From Candidatus Enterousia scatequi (GTDB lineage Bacteria > Pseudomonadota > Alphaproteobacteria > Rs-D84), in contig JAGHVG010000001.1 in NCBI GenBank assembly GCA_018064405.1, positions 1-52,905 of the forward strand: a stretch of 52,905 nt of DNA, read 5' to 3'. Below are positions 118 to 51,456 of the stretch, one piece after another; the stretch's first letter is position 1, and every line of letters starts with the position of its first letter. Both the position numbers and the translations under genes were made by a program. The notes under the pieces were generated by a model. The model saw nothing but the letters and a program-made list of their open reading frames with translations. It was not told the origin of the DNA and did not search any database.

Positions 118-1629
118 AATGCAGTTAAACATAGTAATAGTATATTCAAATATATTATCAGTGGTGTGTGTGGAATTTGTGCTGCGTTGGGTTTTGCGCC
201 ATTTAATTTATGGTGGTTATCTGTTGTTGCAATTGGCGTTATGTATTATATTGCAACACGTGAATATAAAAGTGTTCTATACGCATGGTTTCTGGCATTA
301 CCGTTTGGTGCGTGTTATGCAATTGCAATGTTTTGGTGGGTGTTAAATTCTATATATGTTATTCCGGAATTGACACAACAATTTGCGGTTTGGACAATTC
401 CTGGCATAATTGGAATTGGTCTGTTTGGCGCGATGTTTTTTACAATTCCGTTTGTAGTTGTATCGTGTATACGCATGAAATCTGGGGTAAAACCGATTTT
501 ATTTGCTGTGGCATGGGTGTTGGTTTTGTGGTTGCGTGAATGGGTTTTTACTGGTTTCCCCTGGAACCCGTTTGCAAATGTTTTTATTAATATACCGCCT
601 GTAGCAAATTCAATGGCATTGTGGGGTGCTGTTGGACTCTCGTTTGTTGCAATTGGTTTAATTGCATCGTTGGTTGGTGTTTTGCGTAACAGAAAATGTG
701 GTTTTTGTTGGATTACATTTTTGTCTTTCGTTGCATTAATGGGAATAGGGGCAATCGCAGGTTCGTCAAATATGTTATATGCGGAATATGGTGCAGATGC
801 CCCAATGCCAATTATTAGAATTGTTCAACCGGCAACAGATCAGGATGAAAAAACACCGTTTGCTGTTTTTGACCGCATGACACGTGCACAAAATCGTATG
901 AATGATTTAGTGCAAATGGCATCTGAAAATGTTCCGGATATAGTTGTGTATCCTGAAACAACATATCCATTTTTTGTTCGTCCCCATGATGCGATGCCAA
1001 TGGCGAGTGCGTTGAAAACCAATGTAATTGCTGGTGCAAATAGTGTGGCGGATGGAAAAATATACAATTCTATGATTGTGGCTAACACATCGGGCGATAT
1101 AACAAACATATATTCTAAATCGCATTTGGTTCCGTTTGGTGAATATAGCCCACTTGGGTTTATGCCGTCACCGTCTGATTTGACGGCGGGGCGGGGGCCT
1201 GAACTTATATCCATATATTATGGCGATGATCAGGAATTTTTATTCGCACCGGCGGTTTGTTATGAAATTATATTTTCAAATTCATTGGTTGGACGCGATG
1301 ACTTGGATGCAATTGTTAATATAACAAACGATAATTGGTTCGGAAATACCCCGGGTGTATATCAGCATTTGGATATGGTTCGTCGTTATGCAATCGAATC
1401 GGGGTTGCCGATTGTGCGTGCAAATTATTCGGGTATTAGCGCGTTTGTGTTATCGGATGGTTCGGTTATATCGTCGTTGCCGGTGGGGTTGAGGGGAACA
1501 CTCGATGGGTTTGTATGGGGGGCGCATTTGACACCATATCGGTGTATTGGTCTGAATGGTTGGGTAATAATAATTTTACTGTTTTCGATATTAATGGTTG
1601 GCTTTTCTGGTGGTGCCAGGGATGAATAA
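4..1629 (+). CDS. lnt: Apolipoprotein N-acyltransferase (Lnt); independent start unresolved (only GTG at 166)
   Basis: Multi-pass membrane N-terminus, then a CN-hydrolase domain with E/K/C triad contexts (VVYPETT, YSKSHLVPFGEY, APAVCYEI). No ATG lies between the YbeY-like segment and the first TM helix. Confidence 0.85.
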   Translation: MLHLLGYDHLNNRQARVMEGKEVQILKTLGIKNPYADENAVKHSNSIFKYIISGVCGICAALGFAPFNLWWLSVVAIGVMYYIATREYKSVLYAWFLALPFGACYAIAMFWWVLNSIYVIPELTQQFAVWTIPGIIGIGLFGAMFFTIPFVVVSCIRMKSGVKPILFAVAWVLVLWLREWVFTGFPWNPFANVFINIPPVANSMALWGAVGLSFVAIGLIASLVGVLRNRKCGFCWITFLSFVALMGIGAIAGSSNMLYAEYGADAPMPIIRIVQPATDQDEKTPFAVFDRMTRAQNRMNDLVQMASENVPDIVVYPETTYPFFVRPHDAMPMASALKTNVIAGANSVADGKIYNSMIVANTSGDITNIYSKSHLVPFGEYSPLGFMPSPSDLTAGRGPELISIYYGDDQEFLFAPAVCYEIIFSNSLVGRDDLDAIVNITNDNWFGNTPGVYQHLDMVRRYAIESGLPIVRANYSGISAFVLSDGSVISSLPVGLRGTLDGFVWGAHLTPYRCIGLNGWVIIILLFSILMVGFSGGARDE

Positions 1630-1639
1630 TATGTAAATC

Positions 1640-1668
1640 TTGACTTTTGATTGGTAAAAGATTAGTAT
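1640..1668 (+). promoter_or_regulatory. Sigma70-type promoter P1 (TTGACT-17-TAGTAT) driving the thrS leader
   Basis: TTGACT at 1640-1645, 17-nt spacer, TAGTAT at 1663-1668. Confidence 0.45.
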
Positions 1669-1678
1669 TTTAATCACG

Positions 1679-1738
1679 ATGATGTTTGTTGATTTTATTT
1701 TTACAGCCACAACAACTACAACCCCTTTGGGGGTGTAA
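1679..1738 (+). CDS. Thr-rich leader peptide MMFVDFIFTATTTTTPLGV (candidate thrS attenuator ORF)
   Basis: ATGATG at 1679. Codons 1703-1723 read ACA GCC ACA ACA ACT ACA ACC (6 Thr of 7). TAA at 1736-1738. The ORF is below the ORF-track size cutoff. It has no SD and starts a few nt after the predicted TSS. Confidence 0.5.
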   Translation: MMFVDFIFTATTTTTPLGV

Positions 1739-1747
1739 TTTCTATTT
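1718..1747 (+). promoter_or_regulatory. Leader hairpin ACCCC-TTTG-GGGGT followed by a T-rich tract (possible attenuator/terminator)
   Basis: Stem 1721-1725 pairs with 1730-1734 and overlaps the last Thr codon and the end of the leader ORF. Downstream sequence is GTAATTTCTATTT. Confidence 0.3.
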
Positions 1748-1774
1748 GCACATATCTTGTGCACGCATTATAAT
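1746..1774 (+). promoter_or_regulatory. Second promoter-like element P2 (TTGCAC-17-TATAAT) with palindromic spacer
   Basis: TTGCAC 1746-1751 and TATAAT 1769-1774. The spacer contains TGCACA-TATCT-TGTGCA (1747-1763). Confidence 0.4.
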
Positions 1775-1823
1775 CAGTTCAGTTAAAACAATAAAATAAT
1801 GTAAATTAAAAAGGTATTTAATT

Positions 1824-3557
1824 ATGTCTTATCCAATTGAAACAATCCGTCATTCGTTGGCGCATGTTATGGCAGCAGCGGTTAAAAAGTTATATCCAGA
1901 TGTTAAATTCGCGGGTGGCCCTGCGATTGAAAATGGATTCTATTACGATTTTGATACAGAACACAGATTTTCAGAAGAAGATTTTGCTGCGATTGAAAAA
2001 GAAATGAAATCACTGATTAAATCAGACGGTCGGTTTGACCAAAAAATAGTATCACTGGATGAAGCCAAACAGATATTTGCAGATCAGCCATATAAAATGG
2101 AATGGTTAAACGAATATGATGCAAATGGCGAACAGTTGTCTGTGTATACTTTCCGTGATTTTGTTGATTTGTGTCGCGGGCCACACGTTGCATCGTCCAA
2201 GGATTTACCCAAGGATGGATTTAAAATTAAATCTGTGGCGGGTGCTTATTGGAAGGGTGATTCAAAAAATAAAATGTTGCAACGCATTTATGTTGATGCG
2301 TTTGCGTCGGCCGAAGAATTAGAACAATACTTGAAAATGGTTGAAGAAGCGGCGGCACGTGATAACCGTAAACTGGGCAAGGATATGGATTTGTTCCATT
2401 TTGAACCTGAATATGCACCGGGTGCGGTATTTTGGCACGACAAGGGATATAAAATTTATCGTAAGTTAATTGAATATATCCGTTGGCGTCAGGAAAAGGC
2501 AGGGTATCAGGAAATATCAACACCATCTGTGATGGATAGATGCCTGTGGGAACGCAGTGGTCACTGGGCAAAATATGGTGCACATAATTATTCAGGTAAA
2601 ACCCAAGATGGCAAGGTGTTTTGTGTAAAACCCATGTCGTGCCCAGGCGGAATGTTGGTCTTTGGTCAGGGGATTAAATCATATAAAGATTTACCGTTGT
2701 ATTTGGCTGAATTTGGCAAGGTGAATCGTTATGAAGCCGCAGGTTCTCTGGCGGGATTGATGCGTGTTCGTGAATTTACCCAGGATGATGCACATATTTT
2801 CTGCACAGAAGATCAGTTGGAGGCAGAAGTTGTAAAAATATTGCGCTTCATTAAGGATATTTATGGCAAATTCGGATTCGATAAGATTTCTATGAAATTG
2901 GCGACACGTCCAAATTCTGAATTCCGTATTGGGTCTGATGAAGTTTGGGATAAGGCAGAAGGTGCATTAAAGCATGCATTGGACGCAAACGGTATTGAAT
3001 ATGAAATTGCTGAGGGGGACGCAGCATTCTATGGGCCAAAAATTGATAATTATTTGCGCGATTCTATGGGGCGTGTATGGCAGTGTGGAACGGTTCAGCT
3101 GGATATGAATTTGCCGGAACGTTTTGATTTGTCGTATATTGGCGAAGATGGTGAAAAGCATCGTCCGATTATGTTACATCGTGCAATGTTGGGGTCAATT
3201 GAACGGTTTATGGGAATATTGTTGGAATCGACAGGTGGAAATTTGCCGTTATGGTTGTCCCCAGAACCAGTTGTGGTTGTGCCAGTGTCTGAAAAATTCC
3301 GTGATTACGCAAATGATGTTGTTGAGAAATTGCGTGATGCCGGGGTGAGTTCTCGTGCGGATTTGCGTGATGAAAAAGTTAATTACAAGATTCGTGAATT
3401 ATCACTCGCCAAGACACCGATTATTGCTGTTGTTGGCGACAAGGAAATGGGTGACAAAACTGTGACTCTGCGTTATCTGGGCAAAGATGGTCAGGAAGCA
3501 GTTGCGCTGGACAAATTTGTTGCCCAGATGACAGAATCTGTAAAAATGCCAAAATAA
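1824..3557 (+). CDS. thrS: Threonine--tRNA ligase, lacking the N-terminal TGS domain
   Basis: 577 aa. It starts directly in the editing domain (IRHSLAHVMAAAVKKLYPDVKFAGGPAIENGFYYDFD, LCRGPHV), followed by the class II catalytic core and anticodon-binding domain. Confidence 0.95.
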   Translation: MSYPIETIRHSLAHVMAAAVKKLYPDVKFAGGPAIENGFYYDFDTEHRFSEEDFAAIEKEMKSLIKSDGRFDQKIVSLDEAKQIFADQPYKMEWLNEYDANGEQLSVYTFRDFVDLCRGPHVASSKDLPKDGFKIKSVAGAYWKGDSKNKMLQRIYVDAFASAEELEQYLKMVEEAAARDNRKLGKDMDLFHFEPEYAPGAVFWHDKGYKIYRKLIEYIRWRQEKAGYQEISTPSVMDRCLWERSGHWAKYGAHNYSGKTQDGKVFCVKPMSCPGGMLVFGQGIKSYKDLPLYLAEFGKVNRYEAAGSLAGLMRVREFTQDDAHIFCTEDQLEAEVVKILRFIKDIYGKFGFDKISMKLATRPNSEFRIGSDEVWDKAEGALKHALDANGIEYEIAEGDAAFYGPKIDNYLRDSMGRVWQCGTVQLDMNLPERFDLSYIGEDGEKHRPIMLHRAMLGSIERFMGILLESTGGNLPLWLSPEPVVVVPVSEKFRDYANDVVEKLRDAGVSSRADLRDEKVNYKIRELSLAKTPIIAVVGDKEMGDKTVTLRYLGKDGQEAVALDKFVAQMTESVKMPK

Positions 3558-3574: not shown

Positions 3575-3718
3575 ATGAAAAAAATAGTGTCTATACTAAT
3601 GTTGGTATTGGTCGTTGTGACGGTTGCAGCGTGTTCGTGCAAGTGCAGTAATGAACCAATAGTGCATGAAAATCAGAAACTGATTGTTCCACCAAATTTT
3701 GGTAATATGCCAAAATAA
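3575..3718 (+). CDS. Small predicted lipoprotein (47 aa), not in ORF track
   Basis: AGGAGA SD 7 nt upstream of the ATG. Sequence MKKIVSILMLVLVVVTVAAC SCKCSNEPIVHENQKLIVPPNFGNMPK has an n-region, an h-region and lipobox VAAC. Confidence 0.55.
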   Translation: MKKIVSILMLVLVVVTVAACSCKCSNEPIVHENQKLIVPPNFGNMPK

Positions 3719-5633: not shown

Positions 5634-6740
5634 ATGAATAAATTCATATACATGGATGCAGCAGCCAGTTTCCTGAAACCACAAGCTGTACTAGAATCTG
5701 AGGGGGATTTTTTGCGTAATAGATATGCAAATGCTGGGCGTGGCGTGTGCGAGCGTGCGGCGGCGGTGGATGACATGGTTGATAAAACACGTCGTTTTGT
5801 GGCTAAATTTATCGGTGCAGATGCCGATTCTATTGTTTTTACCTTTGGTGCAACTGATGGGTTTAACAGAATCGTGAACATATTAAAAAACACCCCTGGA
5901 ATGTTGAATAAAAATACTGTATGCGCGGTATCTGATCTGGATCATCACAGTTTTAGGGGACCATTTGAGATGTCGCCCGCCAAAACCATTGTGTGTCCAT
6001 TGGATAAAAATATGGATATTGATATTAAACGTATTCCATGTGCGGATATTTTGCTTATAACGGCGATGTCCAATGTTTTGGGACATGCACAAAATGTGAA
6101 AAAAATTATATCTGTGGCACGCAAGGCAAATCCGAATGTCATTGCGATTGTTGATTGTGCCCAATATGTTGTGCATGAAAAAATAGATGTTAAAAAATGG
6201 GATTGTGATTTTATGTGCTTTTCGGGACATAAAATTGGTGCTGATACTGGGGTGGGGGTAATGTATATTAAAAATCCAAAACGTTTTAGTCCTGATAAAT
6301 TTGGTGGCGGAATGGTTGCAAAAATATATGGTAAAAAATGGATATTAGAATCGGCACCAATTTGTTTTGAAGCAGGAACGTTGCCAATTACACAAATCGC
6401 TGGATTAATGCCTGCGATAGATTCGTTGATTGATAAACGCCCTGATTTAGATTTAATAAAATATATGTATGATGAACTGGACTATTTAAAGCAAATAAAG
6501 ATTCTGTCCAAACGTGATGCTGCGATTCTGTCGTTTGTAATTGATGGTATGCATCCGTTGGATGTTGGAACAATATTAGGTGTAAATAACATATGTGTGC
6601 GCGTCGGAAATATGTGTGCATCGTGGATACATAAATATATGTCTGTATCGGGCTGTGTTCGTTTGTCTGTTGGGCCATGGAATACTAAGTCAGATGCGCG
6701 TGCGGTTATTAAAGCAATAAAAAAAATAGTGGAAAAATAA
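5634..6740 (+). CDS. sufS: Cysteine desulfurase (class V aminotransferase, SufS-like, short)
   Basis: PLP-lysine context FSGHKIGADTGVGVMY and catalytic Cys context RVGNMCASW. Followed by sufT- and sufE-like genes. Confidence 0.85.
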   Translation: MNKFIYMDAAASFLKPQAVLESEGDFLRNRYANAGRGVCERAAAVDDMVDKTRRFVAKFIGADADSIVFTFGATDGFNRIVNILKNTPGMLNKNTVCAVSDLDHHSFRGPFEMSPAKTIVCPLDKNMDIDIKRIPCADILLITAMSNVLGHAQNVKKIISVARKANPNVIAIVDCAQYVVHEKIDVKKWDCDFMCFSGHKIGADTGVGVMYIKNPKRFSPDKFGGGMVAKIYGKKWILESAPICFEAGTLPITQIAGLMPAIDSLIDKRPDLDLIKYMYDELDYLKQIKILSKRDAAILSFVIDGMHPLDVGTILGVNNICVRVGNMCASWIHKYMSVSGCVRLSVGPWNTKSDARAVIKAIKKIVEK

Positions 6741-37324: not shown

Positions 37325-38596
37325 ATGCAGGCGACAGCGACAAAACAAATTGTTGATATCAAAACAATCAAGGGTCAAATCGCCACAAAAATTGATAACG
37401 CTGCATTTTCTTCTTGGATTGAACCACTTGATTTTAGCATTGAAAATAATGTTTTGAATTTGGTCGCACAGAATCAATTCTCGGCGGACTATATTAATTC
37501 TGTATTTGGTGCACCATTAAATGCGGTTGCGGCTGAATATGGGTTGGAAATTGCATTGTCTGTATGTGGTTCTAAAAATAAATCTGTGACGGTTGCAAAT
37601 GATAATGTCGTTGCAGCGTATGCCCCGGCACCGGTTGATACGCATGCGGTTGCGTTTGATGCATTTATTGCATCTGATGAAAACGCATTTGTGTTGTCGG
37701 CCTGTAAAAAGGTTGCAAGTGGCGTCGTATCATTTTCACCATTATTTATTTATGGGCCTGCGGGTTGTGGCAAAACGTTATTGGCAGATTGTATTCGTTC
37801 GGCATCGAATCGCGTTGTTATGATGTCGGGTGCACAGTTTGTTTCTGAATTCACACGCAGTTTGCAGAATCATACGATATTCGCGTTCAAAGATTTTTGC
37901 CGTAATTGTGATACATTTATTTTGGATGATGTTCAGGCATTGTCCGGTAAACGTGCATCCAGCGAAGAATTCTTGCAGTTGATTGTTGATTTACGCAGTG
38001 CAGGTAAAAACATTGTTTTGACATCATCATGTGCACCAAACAATTTATCTGGGTTTGACAGACGTGCGCAATCTTTGTTGGCGTCGGGTTTGGTTGCAGA
38101 TGTTGTTGCGCCAAATGCAAATGTAAAACGCACAATGTTGGTACGCGGTGGGGTGTCGGTCAATGTTGCAGATGAAATTGCATCACGCATTGCGAATGAT
38201 GGGCATGCGATTGCGGGTGTTGCAAATAAAATAAAAACATATTCTGAATTAATGGGTTGTGATGTTGATATAAATGTTGCGAATCGTTTGTTGGCGGATA
38301 CATTACAGAAATTCAAAACACCAATTGCAATGGTTAAGGCAATGTGTGAAAAATTGGGTGTATCATACGATGCAATTTGTGGGTCGGGGCGTGCGCGCAG
38401 TTTGGTTGTTGCACGTCAAATAATGATGGTGGTTTTGAAAAATGCGACAACGTTGTCATTGGCGGAAATTGGTTCATATGTTGGTGGTCGTGATCATGCG
38501 TCGGTCCTGTATGCGATTCGCCAGATTGAAAAACAGCAGGCATGTGATTTATTATTGACGGCCCAGATTAATCAGTTGATATCTGAATGTAAATAA
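37325..38596 (+). CDS. dnaA: Chromosomal replication initiator DnaA (divergent, short)
   Basis: Domain I (FSSWIEPLDF...LNLVAQNQFSADYI), AAA+ core (PLFIYGPAGCGKT, FILDDVQALSGK, NIVLTS) and DNA-binding domain IV (LAEIGSYVGGRDHASVLYAIRQIE); 423 aa. Confidence 0.85.
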   Translation: MQATATKQIVDIKTIKGQIATKIDNAAFSSWIEPLDFSIENNVLNLVAQNQFSADYINSVFGAPLNAVAAEYGLEIALSVCGSKNKSVTVANDNVVAAYAPAPVDTHAVAFDAFIASDENAFVLSACKKVASGVVSFSPLFIYGPAGCGKTLLADCIRSASNRVVMMSGAQFVSEFTRSLQNHTIFAFKDFCRNCDTFILDDVQALSGKRASSEEFLQLIVDLRSAGKNIVLTSSCAPNNLSGFDRRAQSLLASGLVADVVAPNANVKRTMLVRGGVSVNVADEIASRIANDGHAIAGVANKIKTYSELMGCDVDINVANRLLADTLQKFKTPIAMVKAMCEKLGVSYDAICGSGRARSLVVARQIMMVVLKNATTLSLAEIGSYVGGRDHASVLYAIRQIEKQQACDLLLTAQINQLISECK

Positions 38597-40016: not shown

Positions 40017-40047
40017 AAAAAATGCCCATTTGGGCATTTCGTTTTTT
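40017..40047. terminator. Bidirectional intrinsic terminator (overlaps parE stop)
   Basis: AAATGCCC-ATTT-GGGCATTT with flanking A- and T-runs. Confidence 0.7.
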
Positions 40048-42025
40048 ATACAAACAAATCTTTTACAAATTGGGCGTGTTCAGTTATAAATTTAAACCTG
40101 AATTCTGGTTTTTTGCCCATTAATTCGGTGACGATTGTGCGCGTTTTTTCCGTATCTTCGGTGCCGTCATCTGTGCGTGGTGGCAGGTCAACCCGAATCA
40201 AACGTCGCGTTTTTGGTGACATGGTTGTTTCCTTTAACTGATTTGGCATCATTTCACCCAATCCCTTAAAGCGTGATATTTCAACCTTTTTATTTTTATA
40301 TTTGCCGTTCGTTAATTCATCCAATTCTTCGTCAGTGTCAACATATACCGATTCTGTACCACATGTTAATTTATATAATGGCGGACACGATAAGTATAAA
40401 TGTCCCCCATAAATTAGTTGTGGCATATACTGATAGAAAAATGCCATCAATAGTGATGCAATGTGCGATCCGTCAACATCAGCATCGGTCATTACAATTA
40501 TTTTTTCATAGCGCAGTTTTGAATCGTCCCAATCTTTTGCTGTGCCGGCACCGATAATATCAATCAAATCATTCAATTCGCGATTCGCACTGAATCGTTC
40601 ATCAGAATTAGATAAAACATTTAATACCTTGCCACGCAGGGGCATAATTGCCTGGGTCGCGCGGTCGCGTGCCTGTTTTGCGGTACCGCCCGCCGATTCG
40701 CCCTCTACGATAAACAACTCTGTTCCTTCAACACCGTGTTTGGAACAATCAGCCAACTTTGCCGGCATACGAATCCGCTTGGTCGGGGTTTTACGGGCAA
40801 TATCCTTGACCTGTTTCGTTTTGATACGGGCGTTCGCCAGGTTTATTACAAATTCCAATAACGCATTTGATGTTTTCGGATCAGATGCTAAAAACATTTC
40901 CCATGGATCGCGCAGCGCGTTTTCAGTGTAACGCGCGATTTCGGGATTGGAAAGTTTTTCCTTGGTCTGACCTAAAAATTGTGGTGTTTTATAAAATACA
41001 GATACAATCGCCGCCGCAGAATCAAAAACATCATCACTGACAATTGATGCCGCAGATTTGTTGTTGGTCTTTTCGCCGTATGCCTTTATCCCCTTGGTTA
41101 TCGCGGATTTAAAACCACTCTCGTGTGTGCCACCATCAATTGTTGAAATTGTATTACAGTAGGACGAGAAAAATCCATCATCAGATGCCGCACCATTTTC
41201 ATCGGTTAAAAATGTTAGTGCCCATTCAACGCGACCGGTGTCATCAGGGAAATCAACACTGCCACTGAAAATACGCGGAAAAATGCGTGGTTTAGAATCC
41301 GTCTTTTCAGCTAAGAAATCAGCCACCCCATTTGGATAATAAAATGTTTTTTCCGCAGGGATATTCATATCTTCGGTTAATAATTCAGGTGTGCATTTCC
41401 ATTCAACATGAACGCCACGTGATAAAAATGATTTGGCACGAGCCATACGATAAATCTTGATTGGCTTAAACGTTGCAGATTCGCCAAATATTTGTTCATC
41501 AATGGTAAATCTGATTTTGGTCCCGTGCTTTTTTGTTGGGGCACCGCGCATGATTTTTGATGTTGCAACACCACGTGAAAATGTTTGTGTCCATTCGTAT
41601 CCATCACGCGAAATTGTCACAATCATTTCGCGCGACAGGGCATTCACAACTGCACTGCCCACACCATGCAAACCACCACTGGTTTTATAAACATTATTAT
41701 TAAATTTGCCCCCAGAATGCAAGGTGGTCAAAATAACCTCTAATGCAGATTTGCCTGGAAACTTAGGGTGTTCGTCCACCGGAATACCACGACCATCATC
41801 GGTAATTTCAATTGTCTTAGAATCAATCAGGTTCACCGTTATTGTTTTTGCAAATCCTGCCACCGCTTCATCAACAGAATTATCAATAATTTCAATCGGC
41901 AGGTGATGCCATGCCTTTTCATCAGTGCCACCAATATACATCCCCGGACGCAGGCGAACGGGTTCCAGACCTTCCAATACTTGAATGTCTGATGCATCAT
42001 AAGAATTCGTTTTGTTATCTGTCAT
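40046..42025 (-). CDS. parE: DNA topoisomerase IV subunit B (ParE-type, type IIA topoisomerase ATPase subunit)
   Basis: GHKL ATPase (LEGLEPVRLRPGMYIGGT, IDNSVDEA), Toprim (ELFIVEGESAGG, PLRGKVLNV) and DADVDGSHI. At ~659 aa it lacks the long C-terminal insert of proteobacterial GyrB. ATG at 42025 preferred over TTG at 42064. Confidence 0.85.
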   Translation of the reverse strand: MTDNKTNSYDASDIQVLEGLEPVRLRPGMYIGGTDEKAWHHLPIEIIDNSVDEAVAGFAKTITVNLIDSKTIEITDDGRGIPVDEHPKFPGKSALEVILTTLHSGGKFNNNVYKTSGGLHGVGSAVVNALSREMIVTISRDGYEWTQTFSRGVATSKIMRGAPTKKHGTKIRFTIDEQIFGESATFKPIKIYRMARAKSFLSRGVHVEWKCTPELLTEDMNIPAEKTFYYPNGVADFLAEKTDSKPRIFPRIFSGSVDFPDDTGRVEWALTFLTDENGAASDDGFFSSYCNTISTIDGGTHESGFKSAITKGIKAYGEKTNNKSAASIVSDDVFDSAAAIVSVFYKTPQFLGQTKEKLSNPEIARYTENALRDPWEMFLASDPKTSNALLEFVINLANARIKTKQVKDIARKTPTKRIRMPAKLADCSKHGVEGTELFIVEGESAGGTAKQARDRATQAIMPLRGKVLNVLSNSDERFSANRELNDLIDIIGAGTAKDWDDSKLRYEKIIVMTDADVDGSHIASLLMAFFYQYMPQLIYGGHLYLSCPPLYKLTCGTESVYVDTDEELDELTNGKYKNKKVEISRFKGLGEMMPNQLKETTMSPKTRRLIRVDLPPRTDDGTEDTEKTRTIVTELMGKKPEFRFKFITEHAQFVKDLFV

Positions 42026-42086
42026 AGTAACCACATTATTAGAACATTTTACGCCTTTGCGCAAGTCAGATTTTTATTTGCTGCCC

Positions 42087-50337: not shown

Positions 50338-51456
50338 ATGGAATTTTCGGTATTTCGTCAGGTGTTAATACGTGCGTTGGGACATATGCAGTCCATTGTT
50401 GAAAAACGTGCGGCTTTGCCGATATTGATGAATGTTAAATTGGATGTTACAGATAATTTGACTTTGTCTGCGACAAATGTTGATTTGGAATTGGTTGAAC
50501 ATGTTGCAGCGGATATAACCCTAGCTGGTAAAACAACTGTGCCGGTTCAAATGTTGTACGACATTGTTCGTAAATTACCCGAAGATGCTGAAATTAGTTT
50601 CAAGCAATCTGGCGATCAGTTAATTGTTTCCAGTGGCCGCGCTGTTTTCAAATTGCCTACGTTGCCGGCTGAAAATTTCCCAGCGATGGCGGGCAGTAAT
50701 TTAACAACAAAATTCCAGATGACAACTGGGGATTTGGCACATTTAATTAATCAGACAAAATTTGCAATTCCAACAGATGATGTCCGGTATCATCTGGGAG
50801 GCATTTATTTACATATATCTGATGAAGGTAAGCAAAAATTATTGACTGCGGTTGCAACAGATGCCCAACGTTTGGCATTATGTTCTATGGCTGCCCCGGT
50901 TGATAGCACTGAAATGCCGGCGGTAATTTTACCACGTCGTGTTATTGGCGAATTGTCTAAGTTATTAGAAGATGCAAATGTTGATGATGTTATGGTTGAA
51001 TTGTCTGATACCAAGGCGCGTTTTACTGTTGGCACCGCGATTTTGACCAGTAAGTTGGTTGATGCGCAGTATCCAAATTATCGTGTCGTTATACCAAAGG
51101 GTAATGACAAGATTGCGGTTATGGACAGAAAGCAATTTGTTAATGCGGTTGATCTGGTGTCTGTGGCCAGTATTGATAAGACAAAATCTGTTCAGTTGAC
51201 GTTTTCTATGAATAAATTGGTGATAAATGCATCCAGTCCTGATGCAGGAACAGCTACCCAGGAATTAGATGTTGAATATAATGGTGATACTGAATTTACA
51301 GTTGTATTTAATGTAAAGTTCTTGTTGGATGTCGCGGGTCAGGTTGAAGGTGATAAATTCAAAATGGAAATGCAGGATCCGTTATCGCCGACAACAATAC
51401 AATCTATGGACAAGAAAACAGATTCGTTATTTGTGCTGATGCCAATGCGAATGTAA
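50338..51456 (+). CDS. dnaN: DNA polymerase III beta sliding clamp
   Basis: Three-domain clamp, 372 aa; the C-terminus ...FVLMPMRM is typical. Confidence 0.93.
   Translation: MEFSVFRQVLIRALGHMQSIVEKRAALPILMNVKLDVTDNLTLSATNVDLELVEHVAADITLAGKTTVPVQMLYDIVRKLPEDAEISFKQSGDQLIVSSGRAVFKLPTLPAENFPAMAGSNLTTKFQMTTGDLAHLINQTKFAIPTDDVRYHLGGIYLHISDEGKQKLLTAVATDAQRLALCSMAAPVDSTEMPAVILPRRVIGELSKLLEDANVDDVMVELSDTKARFTVGTAILTSKLVDAQYPNYRVVIPKGNDKIAVMDRKQFVNAVDLVSVASIDKTKSVQLTFSMNKLVINASSPDAGTATQELDVEYNGDTEFTVVFNVKFLLDVAGQVEGDKFKMEMQDPLSPTTIQSMDKKTDSLFVLMPMRM

Follow-up and report, generated by a model that had tools for sequence, protein, structure and literature searches.

A leaderless, threonine-codon-rich open reading frame upstream of thrS in Candidatus Enterousia as a candidate sensor of threonyl-tRNA charging

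Introduction

Two types of control are known for thrS, the gene of threonyl-tRNA synthetase (ThrRS): the translational operator of Escherichia coli, which mimics tRNA-Thr, and the T-box leaders of Firmicutes. To our knowledge, the control of aminoacyl-tRNA synthetase (aaRS) genes is well understood in only a few models, namely attenuation of pheST, operators in E. coli and T-boxes in Firmicutes, and is largely unknown in Alphaproteobacteria and in symbionts with reduced genomes. Here, we analyse the region upstream of thrS in Candidatus Enterousia scatequi (GCA_018064405.1), within a stretch of 52,905 nucleotides (nt) that covers positions 1-52,905 of the forward strand of contig JAGHVG010000001.1 and is hereafter called the window. 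A previous sequence-only reading of this DNA had pointed to a short open reading frame (ORF) rich in Thr codons and followed by a hairpin, and had proposed that thrS may sense the charging of tRNA-Thr through ribosome stalling. The Enterousia lineage to which the host belongs has genomes below 1 Mb and lacks amino-acid biosynthesis (PMC12306168).

Results

Organisation of the thrS leader

The region between the preceding gene and the end of thrS contains the following elements, all on the plus strand:

1640..1668, +, promoter P1 (-35 TTGACT at 1640-1645, 17-nt spacer, -10 TAGTAT at 1663-1668)
1679..1738, +, leaderless leader ORF of 19 codons, opened by ATGATG (1679-1684) and encoding MMFVDFIFTATTTTTPLGV before its stop
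1703..1723, +, Thr-codon run, the presumed sensor (ACA GCC ACA ACA ACT ACA ACC; Thr in 6/7 codons)
1717..1737, +, hairpin 1 in its form extended with UACA/UGUA (arms 1717-1720 and 1734-1737, A1721 bulged)
1721-1734, +, hairpin 1 core, A-CCCC-UUUG-GGGG-U, whose 5' arm begins in the last Thr codon
1736..1747, +, leader stop UAA and conserved U-rich tail, UAAUUUCUAUUU
1746..1774, +, promoter P2 (-35 TTGCAC at 1746-1751, 17-nt spacer, -10 TATAAT at 1769-1774)
1747..1763, +, hairpin 2, UGCACA-UAUCU-UGUGCA, inside the P2 spacer
1775..1823, +, 5' untranslated region (UTR) of thrS, A-rich and unstructured, with a Shine-Dalgarno (SD) sequence AAAGG at ~1810-1814
1824..3557, +, thrS (ATG at 1824), a 577-amino-acid ThrRS without TGS domain according to Pfam

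Re-reading the window placed every element named by the sequence-only reading (P1, ORF, Thr run, hairpin, P2 and the palindrome in its spacer) where it had been reported, and consensus scans also flagged P1, P2 and hairpin 1. The leader exceeds chance expectation. It is the sole ORF among the 504 short ATG-initiated ORFs of the window in which at least 6 of 7 residues are identical (0.15 per window in shuffled sequences), and its CCCC-N4-GGGG motif occurs once where 0.22 occurrences are expected. The fold of the whole leader is no more stable than that of shuffles (z = -0.76), only the two local hairpins being of importance. The window, which contains no aaRS gene other than thrS, yielded no further leader of this type, nor did 375 kb of Enterousia DNA apart from those of thrS and serS.

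Conservation of the leader among thrS loci

A ThrRS-based scan of species-representative genomes retrieved 29 loci with 77-88% identity, which belong to Candidatus Enterousia and to gut or rumen alphaproteobacterial metagenome-assembled genomes, and one locus at 53% (L059); the remaining loci of the scan come from other Alphaproteobacteria. The clade set used below (n = 30) consists of 28 of the 29 loci (L028, in which the 5' end of the gene is missing, was left out), L059 and the window. It was complemented by 11 Enterousia-type metagenome contigs with the same thrS leader arrangement and by an outgroup of 49 alphaproteobacterial thrS loci from outside the clade, whose 250 nt upstream of the gene were inspected in any frame.

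The Thr run is present in all 30 clade genomes and in the 11 metagenome contigs, while none of the 49 outgroup loci displays at least 4 Thr codons in 6. A lack of the run in relatives, which the sequence-only reading had set as a refuting condition, is hence not what the comparison shows. In the clade, the leader ORF counts 17-20 codons at every locus and ends in T(4-7)-P-x-G-V-stop. Counting back from the ACC codon that enters hairpin 1, Thr is found in 30 of 30 loci at codons 0 and -1, then in 28 (-2), 25 (-3), 24 (-4), 21 (-5) and 8 (-6). The third positions of the run vary (ACA, ACT, ACG), as do the codons that follow (Pro as CCT, CCG or CCC; x as Leu, Ala, Phe or Thr; Val as GTG, GTC or GTA), and a CGG triplet is inserted in frame just before the stop in three sequences. 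Such synonymous variation combined with frame-preserving indels indicates that selection acts on the codons and the reading frame and not on an RNA motif. The N-terminal residues of the peptide are poorly conserved, with an abundance of Phe, Ile and Val, whereas codon run, reading frame and stop position are retained. The layout persists down to a ThrRS identity of 53% and despite differing upstream genes, and the divergence of the DNA located upstream of P1 shows that the element belongs to thrS.

All 30 loci display a P1 pattern (TTGnnn-17-TAnnnT) with an invariable spacer of 17 nt. The leader ATG follows the -10 box by 6 nt (5 loci), 7 nt (12), 9 nt (9) or 10 nt (4), and no SD sequence precedes it in any of the 30. 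This start 6-10 nt past the -10 box without SD implies a leaderless or nearly leaderless mRNA; what the sequence-only reading had listed as a caveat turns out to be a conserved trait.

Two peculiarities were noted along the way. At six loci (L004 at ~2150-2195, L011, L016, L017, L020 and L027), the terminator of the preceding gene shares its U tract with P1, where it serves as the -35 box and the T-rich upstream part, e.g. GGGGGCAAAATGCCCCCTTGATTTTTT, and the overlap of the hairpin 1 tail with the -35 box of P2 is the same kind of compaction. Besides, the Pro codon of the leader (1724-1726 in the window) is never CCA (0/30); CCA accounts for 49% of the Pro codons in the genes of the window, more than any other, and is used as the leader Pro codon in thrA leaders of other bacteria. 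An A at the first position of the hairpin 1 loop thus seems to be avoided in Enterousia.

Hairpin 1, hairpin 2 and the second promoter

The codons that form hairpin 1 are the last Thr, Pro, x, Gly and Val codons of the leader. Its five core pairs are invariant in 36/36 aligned leaders, with a freely varying loop, and the leader stop lies 1 nt past the hairpin in 27/30 loci or, in the other 3, one codon further on. The core is worth ~-8 kcal/mol and the extended UACA.CCCC/GGGG.UGUA form -9 to -12 kcal/mol in most species; the extension takes another form in the three leaders that carry the extra CGG. In the window, the core is followed by GTAATTTCTATTT. Hairpin 1 was flagged by the consensus scan, with an interrupted U tail that is weaker than those of the bona fide terminators of the window. 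Since the G+C stems of these genuine terminators are only 4-6 bp long, the short stem of hairpin 1 falls in the terminator range.

A P2 pattern (TTGC..-16 to 18 nt-(T/A)A(T/A)AAT) is likewise found at 30/30 loci, with a spacer of 17 nt in 25 of them, and its -35 box starts 6-9 nt past the leader stop in 29/30. Hairpin 2, which is nested in this spacer, is present in 29/29 sequences (mean -6.1 kcal/mol, mean z -2.6) with arms as diverse as GCGG/CCGC, GCAC/GUGC, GCGA/UCGC, GCGU/ACGC, GCGC/GCGC and GUGC/GCAC. Its loop ranges from 3 to 10 nt while the P2 spacer stays at ~17 nt; a spacer held despite a changing loop points to P2 as a genuine promoter of the sigma-70 type. In a model-fitted alignment, compensatory changes affect all five pairs of hairpin 2, with a covariation score of 0.300 against 0.096 in shuffles (0/500 reach the observed value) and at most 0.108 in slid controls. 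Covariation, to which the sequence-only reading had looked as a check of its hairpin, is therefore found at hairpin 2 and not, within thrS leaders, at hairpin 1. A role of hairpin 2 as a protein operator was rejected on the basis of its half-site spacing of 3-10 nt and its covarying arms, and the variable spacing points to a structure formed by the nucleic acid itself; a role as a terminator was rejected for want of a consistent U run. As hairpin 2 lies upstream of the P2 start, it exists only in RNA made from P1, which means that P1 transcripts must pass hairpin 1 at least sometimes.

Downstream of P2, no conserved structure was found in the thrS 5' UTR, the 50 nt before the SD being unstructured, and no significant pairing of the leader with this UTR was detected. 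At one locus (L094, minus strand of the locus), an extra G+C hairpin, GGCGGG-TTGT-CCCGCC, is present in the thrS 5' UTR between P2 and the gene.

Serine-codon versions of the leader upstream of serS

A covariance model of the thrS leader also matched the minus strand of two Enterousia loci, L005 (7555-7698) and L013 (7368-7514), in both cases before serS. In these leaders, the run is made of Ser codons and the peptides read MKTGFVFFSSISSPLGE and MKNRFVFFSSSSSSPLGE, each followed by a stop. Five more serS loci (L204-L208, ~1290-1500, plus strand) carry a Ser-run leader; L205 and L206 are identical, so that the set holds four distinct peptides (MKREFTFFSRSSSPFGE, MIMSFLFFYLSSSPLGE, MTMKFSFFSHTSSPSGE and MKLNFVFFSRSSSPLGE, each with its stop). 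All seven loci share the peptide frame MK..F.FF-run-P-x-G-x-stop, and each of the five latter ones has a TTGCAn-17-TATAAT promoter with the ATG 9-10 nt further on. No leader was found at three other Enterousia serS loci (L201-L203), i.e. serS leaders are not universal, and neither hairpin 2 nor a clear P2 is recognisable in L204-L208.

In serS leaders, hairpin 1 becomes U-CCCC-N4-GGGG-A, with a U-A closing pair versus A-U in thrS. This flip accompanies the first-base change of the codon family (ACC to UCC on one side, Val GUN to Glu GAA on the other), which implies that the pair is selected and not the amino acid, and it constitutes the only covariation seen for hairpin 1. A Ser run before serS, paired with a Thr run before thrS, argues for amino-acid specificity of the element.

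The same Thr-run module in other bacteria

A metagenome scan for four ACN codons followed by ACCCC-N4-GGGG returned 80 loci. In 41 of these, a stop codon is found at most 8 nt from the hairpin or in its loop, and 35 of the 41 have thrS (13), thrA (11) or thrB (11) starting within 400 nt. By contrast, none of these three genes is located downstream of the 39 matches that lie inside long ORFs (0/39). The leaders of thrA (L081 at 5650-5850, L093, L095, L097, L113, L125, L134, L138, L143, L148 and L155) and of thrB (L098, L101, L103, L106, L117, L121, L123, L142, L145, L153 and L154) contain the same module, i.e. a Thr run, ACC-CCN-NNN-GGG-GUN and a stop (T..TPxGV-stop), with an occasional one-codon extension (GVR or GVQ before the stop) as in Enterousia. 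Judged from base composition and promoter-like motifs, the low-GC contigs with thrA look Bacteroidota-like; those with thrB have ~62% GC. Threonine attenuators were reportedly predicted in Bacteroidetes by Vitreschak et al. in 2004, and our literature search found no report of thr leaders in Bacteroides. Rfam gave no match for these related thrA, thrB and thrS leaders.

What comes after the module differs between loci. In the thrA leaders of L097 and L148, it precedes canonical antiterminator and terminator pairs, the 5' strand of the antiterminator lying no more than ~12 nt from the stop, whereas in the thrB leader of L098 the hairpin itself extends to ~13 bp and is followed by U5, which makes it a canonical terminator. 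Finally, two loci of an unrelated lineage, L133 (900-1045) and L150 (1930-2060), encode a distant ThrRS (39-42% identity) behind a leader of the form M..TTTTTP-stop. There, the stop TAG is the loop of CCCCC-TAG-GGGGG, a U-rich tail follows and a tRNA gene lies just upstream.

The presence of the leader parallels the domain content of the synthetase. The window ThrRS contains tRNA_SAD, tRNA-synt_2b (class II core) and HGTP_anticodon domains by Pfam and no TGS, and the TGS domain is missing in every lineage with a Thr-run leader (the Enterousia clade, L059, and L133 and L150, the last two judged by N-terminal sequence). All 49 outgroup loci, which have no leader, encode a ThrRS with a TGS-type N-terminus, confirmed as TGS by Pfam in L030.

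Discussion

A putative ribosome-dependent sensor of threonyl-tRNA charging

The comparison of loci establishes the anatomy of the thrS leader, the coding-type conservation of its Thr run, the specificity displayed by the Ser version and the conservation of P1, P2 and both hairpins. From this, the leader is very probably a Thr-specific cis-regulatory sensor of thrS. Indeed, a Ser-run leader before serS and the same module before thrA and thrB leave an amino-acid-specific sensor as the only reasonable reading, and these two findings together with the conservation of the run lend weight to the earlier idea that charging is sensed through ribosome stalling. In Enterousia, which lacks amino-acid biosynthesis (PMC12306168), the level of an aaRS is among the few handles on tRNA charging.

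The mechanism that we favour may be described as follows. P1 would produce a leaderless mRNA whose 19-codon start ends in the Thr run, which forms part of the 5' arm of hairpin 1. When Thr-tRNA is scarce, the ribosome would dwell on the last Thr codons and cover or melt this arm, so that hairpin 1, acting as a terminator- or pause-like structure, would be blocked and P1 transcripts would run into thrS. With ample Thr-tRNA, the leader would be cleared fast, hairpin 1 would form and P1 transcription would terminate or stall within the U-rich tail, P2 ensuring basal thrS transcription. The footprint of a ribosome reaches ~12 nt 3' of its A site, and Thr conservation peaks right beside the hairpin (28-30 of 30 loci); together, this suggests that the conserved codons are those A-site positions from which the 5' arm would be covered. 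We infer that P1 is used and the leader ORF translated, that hairpin 1 stops RNA polymerase and that stalling increases read-through, which is the homeostatic sign. By analogy, the location of the module before biosynthetic genes and the canonical terminator at thrB support this homeostatic reading. Taken as a whole, we regard the chain from the P1 leader to read-through as evenly poised, and the step of steric antitermination by the stalled ribosome as tentative, somewhat short of an even chance.

Several observations weigh against this mechanism. Hairpin 1 does not covary within thrS leaders, and its tail, GUAAUUUCUAUUU, is an interrupted U tract versus runs of at least five U at real terminators of the window; the tail of serS leaders, AAUAAUUUAUC, is poorer still. 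The interruption, which the sequence-only reading had already raised as a reservation, is a conserved property and not a defect of the window. The same holds for the other doubt then expressed, the lack of an antiterminator: RNAalifold on 29 leaders returned hairpin 1 only, with neither an antiterminator nor an upstream pause hairpin, and downstream partners for the Thr run and the 5' arm were no better than those of shuffles (mean z -0.07) and none was conserved. Moreover, the leader ORF reads through hairpin 1, a configuration for which the precedent of pyrBI and tet(M) would imply the reverse sign. Since a starved ribosome never gets ahead of a replete one, steric masking needs a polymerase pause, and no such feature was found. 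Finally, the favoured mechanism gives no account of hairpin 2.

Alternative mechanisms

Hairpin 1 might instead be a pause or synchronising hairpin, comparable to the 1:2 structure of the trp leader, that would hold the polymerase ~11 nt downstream, between UAUUU and G. This appears unlikely to us, although the downstream antiterminator and terminator pairs of the L097 and L148 thrA leaders suggest that the module can play such a role with the decision taken further on. The poor U tract of the tail and the Y-G steps (pyrimidine followed by G) found 10-13 nt past hairpin 1 in thrS and most serS leaders fit a pause site as well. The regulated step would then have to lie further downstream, in the formation of hairpin 2 beside a ribosome at the stop codon, in the action of Rho (as in tna) or in cleavage by an RNase, and we consider this part equally improbable. 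Hairpin 2, the sole downstream element in Enterousia, covaries and starts an estimated ~11-14 nt past the first base of the stop in 29/30 loci. However, it has no terminator partner or consistent U run, is followed by no terminator and is missing from five serS loci (L204-L208, with one identical pair). For Rho, the Thr run offers few YC dinucleotides and the A-rich spacer looks like a poor rut site from its sequence. Cleavage in the AU-rich tail, which would leave hairpin 2 as a protective 5' stem-loop, is a variant to which we give no better chance. No downstream step that would yield the homeostatic sign was found.

A coupling-type attenuator is quite unlikely. In pyrBI, pyrE and tet(M), only a ribosome that follows closely behind the polymerase suppresses the terminator; by the same principle, fast decoding of the Thr run would here lead to read-through and slow decoding to termination. 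This explanation accommodates the lack of an antiterminator and the fact that the ORF spans the whole of hairpin 1, with its stop 1 nt past it (27/30) or one codon later (3). In addition, the Thr run would fall within the ~26 nt between the A site and the 3' end of the transcript in the polymerase, and would hence be decoded while the hairpin and its tail are transcribed. However, an output that rises with charged tRNA is anti-homeostatic, which is implausible for thrA and thrB leaders that carry the same module. Homeostasis might be restored if termination of P1 transcripts, whose tail abuts the -35 box of P2, freed P2 from occlusion, and P2 does start 6-9 nt past the stop in 29/30 loci. The explanation is likewise implausible for serS leaders without recognisable P2 or hairpin 2, and read-through transcripts would keep an intact thrS ribosome-binding site (RBS).

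We rejected translational attenuation of the type described for poly-Cys leaders of mycobacteria, in which the codon tract, once vacated, would sequester the SD of thrS by pairing until a stalled ribosome frees it, and we hold it for very improbable. The thrS leader is leaderless with its codon tract at the 3' end like Ms5788A (10.1101/834739), and in ~10/29 sequences the thrS RBS contains an AGGGUU with which CAACCCC can pair. However, leader-RBS duplexes stay at the level of shuffles (mean z -0.25) with inconsistent positions, the local CCCC/GGGG hairpin would outcompete a long-range pairing of 4-5 bp, and P2 transcripts do not contain the leader. A hungry-codon frameshift into thrS was discarded too, as neither the +1 nor the -1 frame is kept open across the leaders and in five sequences the +1 frame is closed by a stop almost at once. 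Finally, that the ORF does not regulate thrS at all, because it is either a separate gene for a small protein that has a terminator of its own or an ORF that arose by chance between the thrS promoter and the terminator region of lnt, is extremely improbable: P2 alone could express thrS and the hairpin with its tail could merely end a small transcript, but the peptide is poorly conserved at its N-terminus while run, frame and stop are maintained, the run matches the gene (Thr at thrS, Ser at serS), the element remains linked to thrS as upstream genes change, and 0/49 outgroup loci carry it.

Comparison with known leaders

With their short ORF of cognate codons followed by a G+C hairpin and a U-rich tail, E. 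coli thrL (RF00506) and pheM are the obvious relatives of the thrS leader, and pheM sets the precedent of an aaRS operon that can be controlled by leader-peptide attenuation. Unlike them, the Enterousia leader is leaderless and has a single hairpin that is read through, without 1:2 pause or 2:3 antiterminator structures, and a second promoter immediately downstream. Accordingly, the Rfam model Thr_leader (RF00506) gave no match at the window leader even at E <= 10, Phe_leader (RF01859) reached 22.6 bits on the minus strand for a threshold of 55, no Rfam family attained its gathering score, and no match to a T-box covariance model was obtained at the window leader. The target is the same as that of the E. 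coli thrS operator and of T-boxes, namely matching ThrRS to the charging of tRNA-Thr. Unlike the operator, the leader has no mimic of the anticodon arm, the loops of both hairpins being variable, and unlike both systems its proposed sensor is the ribosome and not ThrRS or the uncharged tRNA.

Leader peptides have been described before other aaRS genes, such as pheST in gamma-Proteobacteria and trpS and leuS in Streptomyces (PMC1262725) or hisS in bacilli (PMC2965389). The closest parallel is found in Streptomyces lividans, where leaderless thrL-thrS, alaL-alaS, leuL2-leuS and trpL2-trpS pairs were annotated from RNA sequencing of a single genome (PMC8079986). The S. lividans ORFs are also leaderless and located before aaRS genes, and thrL (MKRVRPFLETTPGFVPAR) even contains T-T-P-G and precedes a single hairpin without U run. 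However, it has two Thr codons, as opposed to the run of 4-7 codons that is conserved here across >40 sequences, and the Ser-run version before serS and the tandem promoter are specific to the present case. An ORF that overlaps the only hairpin in the absence of an antiterminator is shared with the pyrBI, pyrE, tet(M) and ilvB leaders. In actinobacterial ilvB leaders, the regulatory codons overlap the terminator hairpin and the mode of action was stated to be unclear (PMC1262725). Unlike the system proposed here, pyrBI and tet(M) sense the coupling of ribosome and polymerase and not a cognate amino acid. Mycobacterial poly-Cys small ORFs, in which the tract pairs with a downstream SD for translational control (10.1101/834739), resemble the thrS leader in being leaderless, in the position of the tract at their 3' end and in the sharing of one design by several loci per genome; they differ by the tract-SD pairing, of which there is no counterpart here. 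As for the thrA and thrB leaders found in this work, their sensor module is identical, but they encode longer peptides, are followed by other downstream elements and control biosynthetic genes rather than an aaRS. At the level of sequence, the Enterousia system would thus be set apart by the combination of a leaderless single-hairpin thrS leader, a tandem basal promoter and a Ser-run version before serS.

These features suggest that an uncultured gut lineage devoid of amino-acid biosynthesis keeps a dedicated ribosomal sensor before thrS and, in some species, before serS. The natural Thr/Ser pair and its dozens of variants would form a ready mutational series for the homeostasis puzzle posed by ilvB-like attenuators, and the leader ORFs are additional unannotated small ORFs in these genomes. 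More speculatively, the leader could represent a class of minimal and modular aaRS attenuators made of a leaderless ORF of ~18 codons, a cognate run and one 5-bp hairpin, with the stalled ribosome itself as antiterminator; we find this rather doubtful for the moment. If so, specificity may have been reprogrammed by one first-base change per codon (ACN to UCN) plus the flip of the closing pair, a scenario in which we place limited trust, and the sensor module of thrA and thrB might be a shared invention or a transferred one, which is just as conjectural. Since the design needs NCC followed by CC, it could in principle serve Ala and Pro too. For synthetic biology, this suggests compact and re-codable sensors of tRNA charging.

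Other features of the locus and of the window

In one clade member (L023, 2904-3001), thrS contains an insertion of ~30 codons after MSYDID. Directly 3' of thrS in the window (3575-3718), a 47-amino-acid ORF starting with MKKIVSILMLVLVVVTVAACSCKC and preceded by its own SD (AAAGGAGAAAG) has no Pfam match; its apparent signal peptide and lipobox Cys suggest a small lipoprotein. Upstream of the leader (4-1629), a frame with a YbeY-like C-terminal motif (HLLGYDH) continues without stop into an apolipoprotein N-acyltransferase (LNT_N and CN_hydrolase domains), which is either a ybeY-lnt fusion or an lnt gene with an unusual start. Finally, dnaA (37325-38596), gyrB (40046-42064, minus strand) and dnaN (50338-51456) all lie inside 14 kb, and this clustering indicates that the window probably contains the region of the chromosomal replication origin.

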